DNA of 64,000 nt from a virus (IMGVR_UViG_3300021093_000006); one strand, 5' to 3'. Counted from the stretch's first letter, positions 442 through 14,324 are shown. A program made the numbers and translations. Notes: generated by a model from the sequence alone, not told the origin.

Positions 442-590
442 CCCTCTGCACTCAGTTGTAACACTTAAGAGTTAATCTTAATTGTATCACTACAAAACGT
501 CTACCTAAACTCGCCTTTCTAAGTCAAAGAGTTTGCTGTTTTTGGTCTATCTTGTTGTTACAACTGCCTGACTTATGTCAGTTAAGTGCA
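442..590 (-). ncRNA. Unrecognised structured RNA scaffold, copy 1
   Basis: TGCAC/GTGCA outer stem, hairpin CTGAC-ATAA-GTCAG, perfect 10-bp stem CAGTTGTAAC/GTTACAACTG; both flanks match 14001-14324. Confidence 0.65.
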
Positions 591-600
591 TTAGGATTAG

Positions 601-693
601 TAGTCAGGACAGGATTCGAACCTGTATGATAGTAAACCATTCCTTTTATCTATCTGTCTGTTAACTAGCGTCTACCAATTCCGCCACCTGACT
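601..693 (-). tRNA. tRNA-like RNA with non-canonical, enlarged anticodon arm (anticodon undetermined)
   Basis: Acceptor AGTCAGG/CCTGACT+A, D arm GCG-GAATTGGTAGA-CGC, T arm ACAGG-TTCGAAT-CCTGT; no 7-nt anticodon loop, no encoded CCA. Confidence 0.7.
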
Positions 694-755
694 AAAATTC
701 TAATTCTACGCTTACTACTTGTCTTGTCCTATGAATTAGTAACAGTCTTCATTGT

Positions 756-785
756 AGTCAGGATAGAAACAAATCTATCCTGACT
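756..785 (-). other. Perfect 11-bp hairpin sharing the AGTCAGG/CCTGACT acceptor stem of the tRNA-like RNA
   Basis: AGTCAGGATAG-8nt-CTATCCTGACT. Confidence 0.7.
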
Positions 786-786
786 T

Positions 787-806
787 GAGGATGAGAAGTC
801 CTCTGT
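787..806. repeat. GAGGA-7nt-TCCTC hairpin repeat, second copy
   Basis: GAGGATGAGAAGTCCTCTGT; 792-806 identical to 1-15. Confidence 0.75.
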
Positions 807-884
807 GTTGTTTTATTTCATCCTAACTCTCGTTAAGGTCTATTCCTTTCTCAAGGGAACAACATTTTATTCTTTATAACCAAT

Positions 885-897
885 ATGTCAATGAACT
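885..897 (-). promoter_or_regulatory. boxA-like antitermination motif AGTTCATTGACAT
   Basis: Resembles rRNA-leader boxA; related motifs at 15061 and 21997, each ahead of an RNA cluster. Confidence 0.5.
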
Positions 898-909
898 AAT
901 TTTCTTTTA

Positions 910-940
910 CAAAGTTAAAAATAAAAAACCGAATTGTCAA
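910..940 (-). promoter_or_regulatory. Bacteroidota-type promoter (TTGACA ... TAACTTTG) driving the RNA cluster at 442-890
   Basis: TAnnTTTG at 910-917 with TTGACAA about 20 nt upstream. Confidence 0.6.
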
Positions 941-947
941 ATATTTT

Positions 948-1274
948 TTAAAAACCGAATTTATTTTCATCTTCAGTCAAAAAATAACAATCTTTTAATT
1001 CGTAGATTACCCCATTTGTAGACTCAATAAGGATTTGTGGTTGAAGTGCGATGTATCTTTTTTCACCACTTAATACAGGTTTTTCCAAAGTTTTTGTACC
1101 TTTAACGGAATGATCCGCAATATACGACAAAGAATTTTGTGTATCTTCATCGAAAATAAATGATGTATTAACTTTTACTGATTTAACTATACCTTTGGTT
1201 CTACCGTATTTACTCTTATAGATAAATTCTTTACCTACATATAAATCATTAAATGATGTTTGGATTGTCTCCAT
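948..1274 (-). CDS. Hypothetical protein
   Basis: 108-aa ORF in co-directional run. Confidence 0.7.
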   Translation of the reverse strand: METIQTSFNDLYVGKEFIYKSKYGRTKGIVKSVKVNTSFIFDEDTQNSLSYIADHSVKGTKTLEKPVLSGEKRYIALQPQILIESTNGVIYELKDCYFLTEDENKFGF

Positions 1275-1395
1275 TATTTTTTCTATGTTTTAATTTTCTA
1301 CTATATAAATTTTTAGGTGTTTCCGATCTAGAAACAAAACGACCATCAAAAAAACCATCTTCAACTTGTTGTTGACGTATCTGTGTTCTCTTCAT
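1249..1395 (-). CDS. Small basic protein, possible ArfA-like ribosome rescue factor
   Basis: Manual translation MKRTQIRQQQVEDGFFDGRFVSRSETPKNLYSRKLKHRKNNGDNPNII; F..R.E..K...Y.RK.KH pattern. Confidence 0.5.
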   Translation of the reverse strand: MKRTQIRQQQVEDGFFDGRFVSRSETPKNLYSRKLKHRKNNGDNPNII

Positions 1396-1415
1396 TTTAT
1401 GTTGATCATATTTTT

Positions 1416-11831: not shown

Positions 11832-11840
11832 AGTAATGTA

Positions 11841-12014
11841 TTATTTTTTGTTATTATAATATTCGTCATAATCAACTCTTTCGACGCAGACGTATACATC
11901 TTGAAACCAACCAAATACACATTCATCATAAATTTTACTTGGTTTGAACTCATCCCAATTAAAATTAGGAATTGTATCGTAATATGATTCGTTTGGGAAA
12001 CGTACTCTTACCAT
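11841..12014 (-). CDS. Small hypothetical protein (57 aa)
   Basis: Manual translation MVRVRFPNESYYD... Confidence 0.55.
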   Translation of the reverse strand: MVRVRFPNESYYDTIPNFNWDEFKPSKIYDECVFGWFQDVYVCVERVDYDEYYNNKK

Positions 12015-12015
12015 T

Positions 12016-12195
12016 TTAGTTAGGATTATTTTTCACATAATCAACCATTAAATTCGCTAGATACTTCATATTTCTTCTGAGTTCTATTTCTCTAACTTGT
12101 TCTTCGGCAGTTAATCTTTTATGATTACTTTTACCTCTTCTATTTGAATCTAACCTATCTTCAAATAGTCTTTCATAATATTCTTCTGGTGGCAT
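12016..12195 (-). CDS. Small hypothetical protein (59 aa)
   Basis: Manual translation MPPEEYYERLF...; TATATTTG promoter at 12213-12220. Confidence 0.55.
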   Translation of the reverse strand: MPPEEYYERLFEDRLDSNRRGKSNHKRLTAEEQVREIELRRNMKYLANLMVDYVKNNPN

Positions 12196-12337
12196 AGTCT
12201 TTTAATTTAAAACAAATATAATAACTATTTTTTAATAAAACAAATATTTTCTAAAAAATCTTGTCAGTCCCACAATGAAATCTCTATGGTAATGTTTACC
12301 CTCAAACCTCCACCATAATCTTATTTTATCTAACATA

Positions 12338-12508
12338 TTAATATTTATAAGGTTTTAAAAAACTAATTACATATCCATAAAAGTAAATGTAATTCACATA
12401 CCCCTCTTTTTGACTAAATGTTAATCTATTTGAGATAGATAAACCGTACCCAAATATTCTGAACCAAAAAAGTCCATTTCCTTTATACCAACTAAATTTT
12501 TTTTTCAT
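12338..12508 (-). CDS. Small hypothetical protein (56 aa)
   Basis: Manual translation MKKKFSWYKGNGLFWFRIFGYG... Confidence 0.5.
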   Translation of the reverse strand: MKKKFSWYKGNGLFWFRIFGYGLSISNRLTFSQKEGYVNYIYFYGYVISFLKPYKY

Positions 12509-12509
12509 A

Positions 12510-13004
12510 TTAAATCATTAAAAATTGTTTCCATTCTTCTTTAATTATACCATTCATTCTTTCTATGAATTGGATGTATGTTGGTGCAAATGGTTTTCTT
12601 AAAAATCCCATTCCCACCTCTTCTGGTGTTCTATCATCCTTTTTAAGATTACATACACCACAACAAGTAACTAAATTCTTCCAAGTATTGTCACCACCTT
12701 TAGATTTAGGTATTACGTGATCGATTGTTAAATTTTTATTTGTTCCACAATAAACACATTTATGTCCATCTCTCCTAAAAATATTATATCTACTTAAAGG
12801 AACTTTTTTAAAGGGGGTATAGATAAATCTATTCAACCTAATAACAGATGGTCTAGTGAAGTTTTTAAAACTGGATACAATAGGGTTTGTCTCATCAGAA
12901 TAAACTATTTCTGCCTTACCTTTATAGACTAACTTAAAACCCCTTTTAAGTGTGGTTACATTTAATGGGGTATAGTCATTATTTAAAACTAATACCTTTT
13001 CCAT
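12510..13004 (-). CDS. HNH endonuclease
   Basis: RDGHKCVYCG, TIDHVIPKSKGG, NLVTCCGVCN. Confidence 0.9.
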   Translation of the reverse strand: MEKVLVLNNDYTPLNVTTLKRGFKLVYKGKAEIVYSDETNPIVSSFKNFTRPSVIRLNRFIYTPFKKVPLSRYNIFRRDGHKCVYCGTNKNLTIDHVIPKSKGGDNTWKNLVTCCGVCNLKKDDRTPEEVGMGFLRKPFAPTYIQFIERMNGIIKEEWKQFLMI

Positions 13005-13022
13005 AAAACTTTATTTTTTTTA

Positions 13023-13643
13023 TTATAAATGGGATTGTAACATATCCCTACAATACATTTCTAAATTTGGGTACTGATTTAATACTTCTTTGTTTAAAAT
13101 CATACCACCACTAAACTCTAATTCAGATTTAACAACATGAGTTTGATTAAATTCATCATTCAATAATTGATTATAAATTCTAACCCTTTTCGTGTTAAAT
13201 AAATCTGTTTCTTCACCTAATTTGTAATCAGGCGCCCCAAAGTAACCAAAAGACGCATAAGGGTGATCTTTTAAAATATTTTTTATTTCACTTACTAATA
13301 GTGAGAATATTTTAAAAGGAATATTTTCTTTAGTTTGATAACTATATTTGTCATAAAAATTTTGTCCTCTATCTGCCAATTTTTGTTGTCTAACATAAAA
13401 ATCAGTATTTAGTTTAGGGAAAAAAGAAATAAGGAAATAATCGTATTCATATTCCTCTATATGTACAATATACTTATATTTAGGAGTATGGAAAGTATAA
13501 ACTCTTAATTTTTTATATTTACTATCGGACTTAGGTTTTTCTGTTTGAACGTACCTCCAACCAAATTTATCTCTAAGTTCATCAGATTGTTCCTGAGAAA
13601 ATTTAATTTCGTTTAATATTCTTTTAATTCTTTTCTGTAACAT
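13023..13643 (-). CDS. Hypothetical protein with IKRILNE N-terminus
   Basis: 206-aa ORF. Confidence 0.75.
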   Translation of the reverse strand: MLQKRIKRILNEIKFSQEQSDELRDKFGWRYVQTEKPKSDSKYKKLRVYTFHTPKYKYIVHIEEYEYDYFLISFFPKLNTDFYVRQQKLADRGQNFYDKYSYQTKENIPFKIFSLLVSEIKNILKDHPYASFGYFGAPDYKLGEETDLFNTKRVRIYNQLLNDEFNQTHVVKSELEFSGGMILNKEVLNQYPNLEMYCRDMLQSHL

Positions 13644-13821
13644 AATTTCTTTTCACCTTTACCTTTTCATTATATTCTGGTGAATCGAAATCAACTAAAT
13701 CCCACTTACCATAAAACTTTGGGTTTGTCATAGGACAAGTCTTAGATTCCATAAGTTCTTCGTTAAACTTATCTGACATCTCTTTTGTATAATTTACGAC
13801 AAATGGAAGTTTTGAGTTCAT
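13624..13821 (-). CDS. Hypothetical protein
   Basis: 65-aa ORF. Confidence 0.6.
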   Translation of the reverse strand: MNSKLPFVVNYTKEMSDKFNEELMESKTCPMTNPKFYGKWDLVDFDSPEYNEKVKVKRNYVTEKN

Positions 13822-13902
13822 AATCTTTTTATTTATAATGTAAATTTAAAAAAAAGTTTCGATTCTGCCAAATTTTTTATTATAAATATTTGTTAAAAAA
13901 TA

Positions 13903-13928
13903 AAAAGTCCCGAATATTCGGGACTTTT
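13903..13928. terminator. Intrinsic terminator closing the tmRNA-cluster transcript
   Basis: AAAAGTCCCGAA-TA-TTCGGGACTTTT. Confidence 0.8.
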
Positions 13929-14000
13929 AAAAGGGTCGATAGGATCACTATCTACTTCCACCACTTTATTTTTTTTTAAGGAATAAAGAAACCTAGTGAA

Positions 14001-14324
14001 CCCTCTGCACTCAGGTATACACTATGAAGTTTGTGATAACTCACATATATACAAAAAGTATTCTTTTAAGTAATCTTCTAATTCTTCCATTGAACTAAAA
14101 GATTCTATACTACCATCATAGTTTCTAAATTGGTATTCATTGTTAAATACTCTAGTATCACCAAGTAATCCTTTTACCCATTCTGTATTTCCCATAATAA
14201 AGTTTTTTGTTACTATACAGGTTCTCATGTCTGTATCAGAATCATTCACATTCTTGAAAGAGAATTGTTGAGCAATGTCTCTTGTCGTTACAACTGTCTA
14301 CTCTTGAGAAGTAGAAATGGTGCA
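14001..14324 (-). ncRNA. Unrecognised structured RNA scaffold, copy 2 (carries an ORF-sized insert)
   Basis: 14001-14014 identical to 442-455; 14281-14296 matches 551-566 at 15/16; hairpin TCTACT-7nt-AGTAGA in place of the copy-1 hairpin. Confidence 0.6.
14022..14249 (-). CDS. Small hypothetical protein nested in RNA scaffold copy 2
   Basis: 75-aa ORF from GTG (internal ATG MRTCIV); coding status uncertain. Confidence 0.45.
   Translation of the reverse strand: MNDSDTDMRTCIVTKNFIMGNTEWVKGLLGDTRVFNNEYQFRNYDGSIESFSSMEELEDYLKEYFLYICELSQTS

Follow-up and report, generated by a model that had tools for sequence, protein, structure and literature searches.

Two loci on the minus strand of a 64,000-nucleotide stretch of viral DNA (IMGVR_UViG_3300021093_000006, in the following referred to as the window) are quite probably derivatives of a phage-borne subfamily of the type-P1 twister self-cleaving ribozymes. 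They are named copy 1 (442-593) and copy 2 (14001-14332) here; both are read on the minus strand, and coordinates refer to the whole 64-kb window unless another record is named. The scaffold which they share is real and widespread, and it is not recognised by Rfam. The original prediction for this DNA had suspected a new class of noncoding RNA (ncRNA). As the conserved nucleotides and the topology are those of twister type P1 with a P5 stem, a variant of a known ribozyme class appears to be the better description, with the two copies in the window looking decayed or exapted.

The Shared Scaffold in the Window

At both loci the elements follow each other in the same order: TGCAC, four nucleotides (nt), a perfect hairpin, CAGTTGTAAC, RACAAG, a variable interior, a closing strand, A, GTGCA, and GAGGG. 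The flanks, which had been described as near-identical, proved to contain two exact repeats in the same order in both copies. The 16-mer CAGTTGTAACRACAAG is located at 566-551 and 14296-14281 (minus strand) and the 14-mer CTGAGTGCAGAGGG at 455-442 and 14014-14001 (minus strand), and neither occurs anywhere else in the window. The upstream hairpin differs in sequence between the copies and is perfectly paired in each of them. Copy 1 has an interior of about 90 nt; that of copy 2 measures about 260 nt and includes an open reading frame (ORF). Also the surroundings were found as originally described: the TGCAC of copy 1 begins 10 nt past a transfer RNA (tRNA)-like RNA (693-601), copy 2 sits 110 nt past the 3' end of a transfer-messenger RNA (tmRNA; approximately 14435) with a 98-nt stretch and a U9 run in between, and CCA is encoded by neither of the upstream RNAs. 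Two features had been overlooked, namely that the conserved unit begins 3 nt earlier, with U-A-A in copy 1, and that a group I intron splits the tmRNA gene.

A covariance model, R1, was built from 45 members outside the window. Applied to the 64 kb it yielded exactly two matches, with 41.3 and 28.5 bits. Since a model built from the elements of other phages only matches exactly these two sites, a chance origin of the two copies is excluded.

Extent and Consensus of the Family

The search of phage and metagenome contigs for homologues, which had been proposed together with the original prediction, yielded over 130 loci with the scaffold in IMG/VR from two scans. A scan for the 3' 14-mer CTGAGTGCAGAGGG returned 128 sites, and in 82 cases a TTACAA-like hexamer (up to two mismatches) stands in front. 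In 76 of these 82 cases (73 different sequences) a CAGTTGTAA-like strand is found not more than 400 nt upstream, mostly at a distance of 37-300 nt. An independent scan with the 5' anchor AATGCACCA-N6-12-TCCCAAGG found 110 unique elements, and as 98 of them carry an exact TGAGTGCAGAGGG downstream, the two halves are coupled; the few 5' anchors which lack TGAGTGCAGAGGG look like chance matches. The resulting consensus is UAA-UGCA-CC-A-NN-(5-bp stem with loop UUCCCAAGG)-(variable stem)-A-G-UGCA-GAGGG, the predicted cut falling between the U and the first A. At the DNA level the family pattern reads TAATGCACCA, 2-4 nt, a hairpin of 5 base pairs (bp) with the loop TTCCCAAGG, an inner stem, A, GTGCA, and GAGGG. 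In the less biased, 5'-anchored set inner stems other than CAGTTGTAA also occur, and minimal members of 58-65 nt carry short unrelated P5 hairpins.

No match to the canonical element was obtained among GenBank phages (INPHARED). GTDB genomes contained six elements, all on contigs of uncultured metagenome-assembled genomes, and several of the isolate names suggest lakes (ELA, Lanier). The hosts are uncultivated phages, which apparently come from lakes. A literature search for the motif strings returned nothing relevant.

Over 100 loci the R1 scores were bimodal, with 87 matches at 63-101 bits, which represent the canonical members, and 28 at 23-47 bits; with 41.3 bits, copy 1 falls into the low group. 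A variant class was observed in L096, L105, L135, L083, L120, L144, L080, L090, L106, L108, L171, L152, and L088, in which a 5' end of the form UUAAUCAG(C/UC)UCCCAAGG replaces UAAUGCACCA and the 5' strand of P4, the 3' half being perfect. No twister-like P2 fold was found for these variant 5' ends. Variant and canonical elements of related phages can share the same P5 cargo (L099/L120, L068/L090, and L067/L080). There are also palindromic relatives consisting of a hairpin only, AAUGCACC-AGUURUAA ... UUAYAACU-GGUGCAUU, without P4 loop and GAGGG (L138:2026-2091, L056:799-867, L078:4619-4758, and L162:630-783, plus-strand coordinates), three of the four immediately following a twister-type element.

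Structure and Covariation

The proposed structure was evaluated in an alignment of 45 members, A1, in which pairs were counted against this structure. P4 showed changes on both sides at all five of its pairs and was 98.7% paired, and P5 covaried at nine of ten pairs and was 91% paired. For the structure as a whole 91.5% pairing was observed as compared to 79.6% in shuffled alignments, none of 500 of which reached the observed value, and to 28-50% in controls with slid partners. P1 joins the four nucleotides that precede U-A-A to the four that come after GAGGG. It is weak, being 66% paired (87% at the first pair), with pairing above the shuffles at positions 1-4. P2 was 99% paired and invariant. 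In canonical members the CCC of the P4 loop (L4) is complementary to the GGG of GAGGG (T1) in 99% of the cells, and the GG of L4 to the CC following P2 (T2) in 100%. At the canonical cleavage dinucleotide AA is invariant, with U as the preceding nucleotide in 48 of 51, and the GAG after P2' is near-invariant. A structured RNA scaffold with its structure under selection and with variable cargo, as claimed in the original prediction, is supported by the covariation of P4 and P5.

From 5' to 3', a canonical member begins with a short P1 strand, followed by UAA with the predicted cleavage site after the U, by UGCA as P2 strand, and by CC as the T2 partner. A P4 of 5 bp comes next, the loop of which, UUCCCAAGG, would contribute its CCC to T1 and its GG to T2. 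The obligatory P5 that follows is closed by a C-G pair, is in the commonest case built of CAGUUGUAA/UUACAACUG, and has a variable part of 15-260 nt. The molecule is completed by A, G, the P2' strand UGCA, GAGGG (a G, an A, and the T1 partner GGG), and the 3' strand of P1.

Probable Assignment to the Twister Ribozymes

The family and the type-P1 twisters can be compared segment by segment as follows.

5' side: P1-UAA-cgCc-GC in Rfam twister-P1; UAA-UGCA-CC in the family
P4 and L4: CCGG-UCCCAAGC-CCGG in the rice twister (PMC11662667); P4-U-UCCCAAGG-P4' in the family
Between P4 and P2': gUAAA in Rfam twister-P1; P5, then A, G in the family
3' side: gGcg-GAGGG-P1' in Rfam twister-P1; UGCA-GAGGG-P1' in the family

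Twister cleaves between U6 and A7, and its L4 forms T1 and T2 with L1 and L2 (PMC6154101). The positions of T1 and T2 most sensitive to mutation are G13, C14, C25, C26, G30, C31, A46, and G48, and swapped Watson-Crick pairs in the pseudoknots keep the activity (PMC5113685). The sole pseudoknot change of the family, from GC:GC to CC:GG in T2, is a compensatory swap of this kind. The stems P1, P2, and P4 are found in the family in twister order together with the internal loops L1 and L2, and P2 and P4 are kept in both window copies. Canonical members have the U-A dinucleotide 5' of L1, the G-A 3' of P2 which contains the general-base guanine, and an L4 capable of forming T1 and T2. Copy 1 keeps U-A-A and GAGGG and lacks such an L4; in copy 2 the AA is missing and L4 is weakened in this respect. 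As judged from the sequence, the variable interior or cargo is the optional stem P5, which is located at the same place as in twisters.

The comparison with Rfam gave a divided result. On a 95-nt slice with the 59-nt member of locus L191 the best family was twister-P1 (RF03160), with 19.2 bits and an E-value of 0.038 at a cut-off of 67.2, and the alignment ran from end to end (P1-UAA-P2...P2'-GAGGG-P1'). Locus-wide Rfam scans of canonical members contained no twister match, and the window copies gave none even at E≤10. As this test is weak, the family is filed as a divergent twister-type subfamily on the basis of its architecture and not of Rfam membership.

Several observations speak against the assignment. 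Neither the window copies nor the canonical members reach the Rfam gathering threshold for RF03160 or for the P3/P5 permuted models, and a second minimal member (the slice of L189) had no twister match in the Rfam scan. P2, T1, and T2 are invariant, and what they contribute is therefore complementarity without covariation, an invariance which is in part imposed by the search anchors. That P2 and the P5 base hardly vary is also unusual for a ribozyme and may point to an additional constraint or to a spread in recent time. About one quarter of the model matches (those at 23-47 bits) lack the 5' strand of P2 or L4 and have their 3' half perfectly kept, which a pure ribozyme reading leaves unexplained. 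Finally, the identity of copy 1 in the related loci L033 and L056 carries no information on selection acting on this copy.

Part of this material could also be accommodated by a new self-cleaving or otherwise catalytic class which has converged on twister, or by a noncatalytic structured RNA using twister-like motifs in another role. The family is not recognised by Rfam at its thresholds, its P2 and P5 base are conserved in sequence, P5 is obligatory although no more than about 1% of the annotated twisters have it, and there without consensus (PMC6154101, PMC11662667), and P3, found in 78% of twisters (PMC6154101), is absent. Still, UAA, the 4-bp P2, the 2-nt T2 partner, CCCAAG in L4, GA plus GGG straight after P2', and P1 all occur in twister order and spacing, a coincidence too specific for chance by a rough estimate, and the only Rfam match obtained was twister-P1, aligned end to end. 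Such a separate class is therefore considered unlikely. Two other catalytic folds were rejected. A fold of the hepatitis delta virus (HDV)-like or theta type, a nested double pseudoknot P1-P2-P3-P1.1-P4 with cleavage at the extreme 5' end, does not agree with the order of segments on inspection, and no Rfam HDV-family match occurred at E≤10; the hammerhead core strands CUGANGA and GAAA are absent, the junction strands being UUAA/CAUU, G or nothing, and A, and there was no Rfam match.

Losses in the Two Window Copies

With the twister architecture as a reference, copy 1 comprises the following parts, all on the minus strand.

442..593, minus strand: copy 1, core-degenerate twister-type element (R1 match 600-435, 41.3 bits, E 8.5e-10)
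U593-A592-A591, minus strand: equivalent of the cleavage site
590-587 with 450-447, minus strand: P2
581-577 with 572-568, minus strand: P4, with the loop AUAA at 576-573
566-557 with 462-453, minus strand: P5 closing helix, with A452 as bulge
446-442, minus strand: GAGGG

Copy 1 retains P1, U-A-A, P2, a P4 of 5 bp, P5, and GAGGG. Its minimum-free-energy (MFE) fold recovered P1-like, P2, P4, and P5 helices as a plain three-way structure with a z score of -3.8. In the R1 alignment and in the sequence itself the 4-nt loop AUAA stands in place of UUCCCAAGG, and the junction reads UUAA in place of CCAUU, so that neither T1 nor T2 can form. The most likely status of copy 1 without either of the pseudoknots is that of a structural relic which does not cleave, or of a hairpin module that has been exapted on the 3' side of the tRNA-like RNA. 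The 149 nt of copy 1 are 100% identical in L033 and L056, which are relatives with a different arrangement. In the window the ORF 366-19 lies downstream of the copy 1 element, and in L056 it lies upstream of the same element.

Copy 2 is split into two halves by an ORF.

14287..14332, minus strand: 5' half of copy 2 (matched in the R1 alignment, with the AA of UAA deleted)
14324-14321 and 14320-14319, minus strand: UGCA and CC, with a U-run standing where UAA is expected
14315-14311 with 14301-14297, minus strand: P4, with the loop UUCUCAAGA at 14310-14302
14296-14287, minus strand: 5' strand of P5
14022..14249, minus strand: ORF inside the P5 domain, 75 amino acids (aa) from GTG or 68 aa from ATG
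14001..14020, minus strand: 3' half of copy 2, with an exact CTGAGTGCAGAGGG
14020-14012, minus strand: 3' strand of P5, GUAUACCUG
14011, minus strand: A
14010-14006, minus strand: GUGCA
14005-14001, minus strand: GAGGG

By eye, seven of nine pairs are possible in P5 of copy 2. The MFE fold of 339 nt did not recover this long-range pairing (z -1.9). Both pseudoknots are weakened, as the loop UUCUCAAGA offers CUC:GGG with a wobble for T1 and GA:CC with a mismatch for T2. The ORF has no Pfam family and no relatives in IMG/VR. With UAA lost, T1 and T2 weakened, and a small ORF splitting the halves, copy 2 most likely represents a disrupted element. In L140 a complete element is followed by a leader, a 68-aa ORF, and a solo 3' half, an arrangement which resembles a precursor of copy 2.

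As twister is highly sensitive to unpaired pseudoknot positions (PMC5113685), both window copies are expected to be inactive, and going by their sequences they are probably inactive derivatives. Of the functions suggested in the original prediction, the self-cleaving ribozyme was the best guess and holds for the scaffold as a predicted activity. It probably does not extend to the two copies for which it was made, which lack parts needed for twister catalysis and probably do not cleave.

Genomic Context and Possible Role

The elements lie between genes and almost always point in the same direction as the ORFs on either side. Four near-complete genomes of 117-124 kb have one element apiece, and three occur in one fragment. 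The 102 downstream ORFs are unrelated, falling into 75 clusters, no conserved flanking gene was found among them, and PHROGs yielded no function. In 40 of the 102 cases the element ends 20-60 nt before the next ATG, with an AU-rich leader in between. A tRNA within 600 nt upstream was found for only two of 129 members. The tRNA link is therefore special to this phage, and tRNA association was rejected as a trait of the family. Processing of 3' trailers, another of the functions proposed originally, fits the layout of this phage as well as one relative adjacent to a GOLLD RNA and does not describe the family. In this relative, L141, a minimal twister-type element is located a few nt after a GOLLD RNA match at 4367-4761 (plus strand; 100.8 bits, E 1.4e-25, below the cut-off of 150 bits). 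Further elements at 3708-3853 and 4928-5106 make L141 a dense ncRNA array.

To our knowledge, no role of twister ribozymes in bacteria or phages has been established so far. The canonical RNAs would cut themselves between U and A and so separate the upstream transcript, be it a messenger RNA (mRNA), the GOLLD RNA, or a tRNA-like RNA, from the downstream RNA. The latter would then start with the folded ribozyme carrying a 5'-OH, to be followed by the short AU-rich leader and the next gene. Where a structured RNA lies upstream, as in a few phages, the cut would also mean trimming on its 3' side. The family provides over 130 natural examples overlooked by standard annotation, which are placed consistently: between genes, in sense orientation, and often at 30-50 nt from the start codon that follows. 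This placement and the GOLLD and tRNA-like neighbours suggest processing of transcripts or insulation of the downstream mRNA. The family also displays the decay of a ribozyme, since orthologous positions hold complete or core-less versions with the same cargo, and such pairs allow the question of a second, noncatalytic use of the scaffold to be asked. Tentatively, twister-derived RNAs devoid of catalysis, such as copy 1 and the quarter or so of the family matches without L4 or the 5' strand of P2, might be kept as non-cleaving cassettes carrying cargo. The helix from P2 to P5 with the GAGGG tail might in this case serve as a recognition site for a protein or nuclease, as protector of an RNA end beside tRNA-like RNAs, or as a recombination linker for small gene cassettes. 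As a whole this proposal is possible and rather doubtful.

A role at the level of DNA, with the RNA structure being incidental, is about as improbable as a separate ribozyme class. The element would then be a miniature inverted-repeat transposable element (MITE), or its conserved ends would act as recombination linkers by which phages exchange small gene cassettes. The ends do resemble inverted repeats, the same element stands beside unrelated genes (75 clusters among 102 downstream ORFs), the copy 1 sequence is found on opposite sides of ORF 366-19 in the window and in L056, ORFs lie between the element halves in copy 2 and, with the solo 3' half, in L140, and there are the four palindromic relatives with a hairpin only. 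A single copy per near-complete genome is, however, not MITE-like. Elements almost always co-oriented with transcription, an asymmetric architecture with P4 on the 5' side only and GAGGG on the 3' side only, and compensatory changes which include strand-specific G-U pairs in P4 and P5 are not what is expected from a DNA element, and transposition does not fit with interiors that differ between copies. A MITE was rejected for its copy number and strand bias, and the same two findings disfavour the mobile or excisable cassette of the original prediction. A linker role in recombination would be compatible with the ribozyme reading and need not take its place.

Still less probable is a scaffold resembling Y RNA, the closing helix of which, with its bulged A, would bind a Ro/TROVE-like phage protein, with the variable interior as effector module. 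A candidate partner is encoded in the window at 22011-23459 (minus strand), a DUF2828/DUF7788 protein of 482 aa which matches phrog_850, 'RNA-binding protein', with an E-value of 8e-156 and which we take to be related to the Ro/TROVE proteins. DUF2828 homologues adjoin elements in L149 and L096, tRNA-like RNAs adjoin elements as they are generally known to do with bacterial YrlA, and the core-less copies keep the closing helix. Against this, a DUF2828 homologue was found in none of five element-bearing records (the four near-complete genomes of 117-124 kb, at least 93% complete, and one fragment) and nearby in only two of 71 loci. The conserved unpaired UAA, CCCAAGG, and GAGGG are each accounted for by the twister fold and not by any known Ro site. 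For the protein-binding scaffold of the original prediction, a Ro-like protein as partner is not supported, its gene being missing from the four near-complete genomes with the element, and the Y RNA identity was rejected as the protein is absent from most carriers. An integron attC site (R''/R' consensus not present, cargo inside the site and not between sites) as well as retron msr-msd, group II intron ends, and CRISPR repeats (no defining feature present) were dismissed.

Neighbouring RNAs and Other Features of the Window

The two copies add two further structured RNAs to the annotation of a region already dense with a tRNA-like RNA and an intron-bearing tmRNA. The neighbouring features are the following.

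601..693, minus strand: tRNA-like RNA directly upstream of copy 1 (Rfam tRNA, 40.1 bits; ARAGORN tRNA-Leu(cag), 94 nt)
864..891, minus strand: promoter-like site upstream of the block of tRNA-like RNA, copy 1, and ORF (TTGACA-16-TAAAAT, 11/12, a consensus match alone)
13903..13928, minus strand: hairpin with U-tract resembling an intrinsic terminator, downstream of copy 2 (11 pairs, loop of 4, T-rich tail)
14333..14430, minus strand: 98-nt stretch between the tmRNA and copy 2, closed by GGGUUAAAU/AUUUAACCC (9-bp stem), then U9
14435..15057, minus strand: tmRNA gene with a group I intron in the T-loop region, upstream of copy 2 (Rfam tmRNA, 61.6 bits)
14686-14460, minus strand: group I intron in the tmRNA gene (Rfam Intron_gpI, 100.3 bits)

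The acceptor, D, and T arms of the tRNA-like RNA follow the canonical form, and its anticodon arm has 30 nt as compared to 11 expected by the model. Its acceptor-stem sequence AGUCAGG/CCUGACU is repeated in the P4 stem CUGAC/GUCAG of copy 1, and because of this shared sequence the strand GUCAGG could pair alternatively with the 3' strand of the tRNA-like RNA. The 5' and 3' ends of the tmRNA were read from the acceptor-stem pairing GGGGAUG/CAUCUCC, and with its 3' exon ACUCCCUCCAUCUCCA both the T stem and the acceptor stem are complete again. Introns similar to the intron part of this gene occur in many phage records including 735-kb records of uncultured phages. The fold of the 98-nt stretch consists of the closing stem only and is no better than that of shuffled sequence (z -0.3); it may be a terminator-like structure.

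A hairpin motif, ACAGAGGACUUCUCAUCCUC, is present in the window at approximately 805-785 and at 15-1 (both minus strand), just upstream of the tRNA-like minihelix, and in L033 at approximately 12662-12640 (minus strand), upstream of a tRNA-Leu(taa). The tRNA region may use this motif as a signal for processing or transcription. L033:12160-12420 (minus strand), which continues this phage past the left end of the window, contains tRNA-Leu(taa) and tRNA-Arg(tct) and, in addition, one or more stretches of tRNA shape that are not called by ARAGORN. An AT-rich intergenic repeat, AAAATATTTG...TTTT on the minus strand, precedes blocks of genes at 7007-7054, 12212-12259, 15207-15254, 23444-23491, and 897-952 (plus-strand coordinates) and is probably the promoter type of this phage. 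Tandem repeats of 9 nt coding for collagen-like Gly-X-Y at 61899-62054 and repeats of 42 nt at 58002-58409 lie inside ORFs of 1624 aa and 507 aa, which probably encode fibre or appendage proteins (phrog_4775, pre-neck appendage).

Comparison with Known Systems

The closest relative is twister-P1 (RF03160; rice Osa-1-4). The family has in common with it the order and spacing of P1, U-A-A, the 4-bp P2, the 2-nt T2 partner, P4 with CCCAAG in L4, the optional P5, P2', G-A-G-G-G, and P1', and can form T1 as CCC:GGG and T2 as a pairing of 2 bp. It differs in the T2 sequence (CC:GG versus GC:GC), in one extra U in L4, in the absence of P3, in a P5 which is always present, often 50-150 nt long and usually based on CAGUUGUAA/UUACAACUG, and in an invariant P2 of UGCA. 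Its scores are far below the Rfam cut-off, and self-cleavage is a prediction here.

Twister-sister has a similar arrangement of stems and a similar P4 loop sequence, but according to a review it cannot form the loop-loop pseudoknot of the twister type and does not have the key nucleotides of twister (PMC6154101). The present family has both pseudoknot partners, GAGGG, and UAA, and no match to twister-sister was obtained in Rfam.

Theta ribozymes, minimal HDV-like ribozymes, are likewise a small self-cleaving type in uncultivated phages, cleavage being predicted for the present family, and they can sit directly 3' of a tRNA without CCA, the 3' end of which is freed by the cleavage (PMC10879173). 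Copy 1 shares this layout. The theta fold is HDV-like and not twister-like, however, and theta ribozymes are associated with tRNAs as a family, whereas this applies to two of 129 members here, and copy 1 is devoid of the catalytic pseudoknots.

Bacterial Y RNAs (YrlA) with their Ro60-related protein resemble the family in the pairing of the 5' and 3' ends to a bulged closing helix, in the variable interior, in tRNA-like modules nearby, and in the Ro-like gene of the window. They differ in that the family has no match to the Y RNA families of Rfam and in that most of the carrier genomes do not contain the Ro-like gene.

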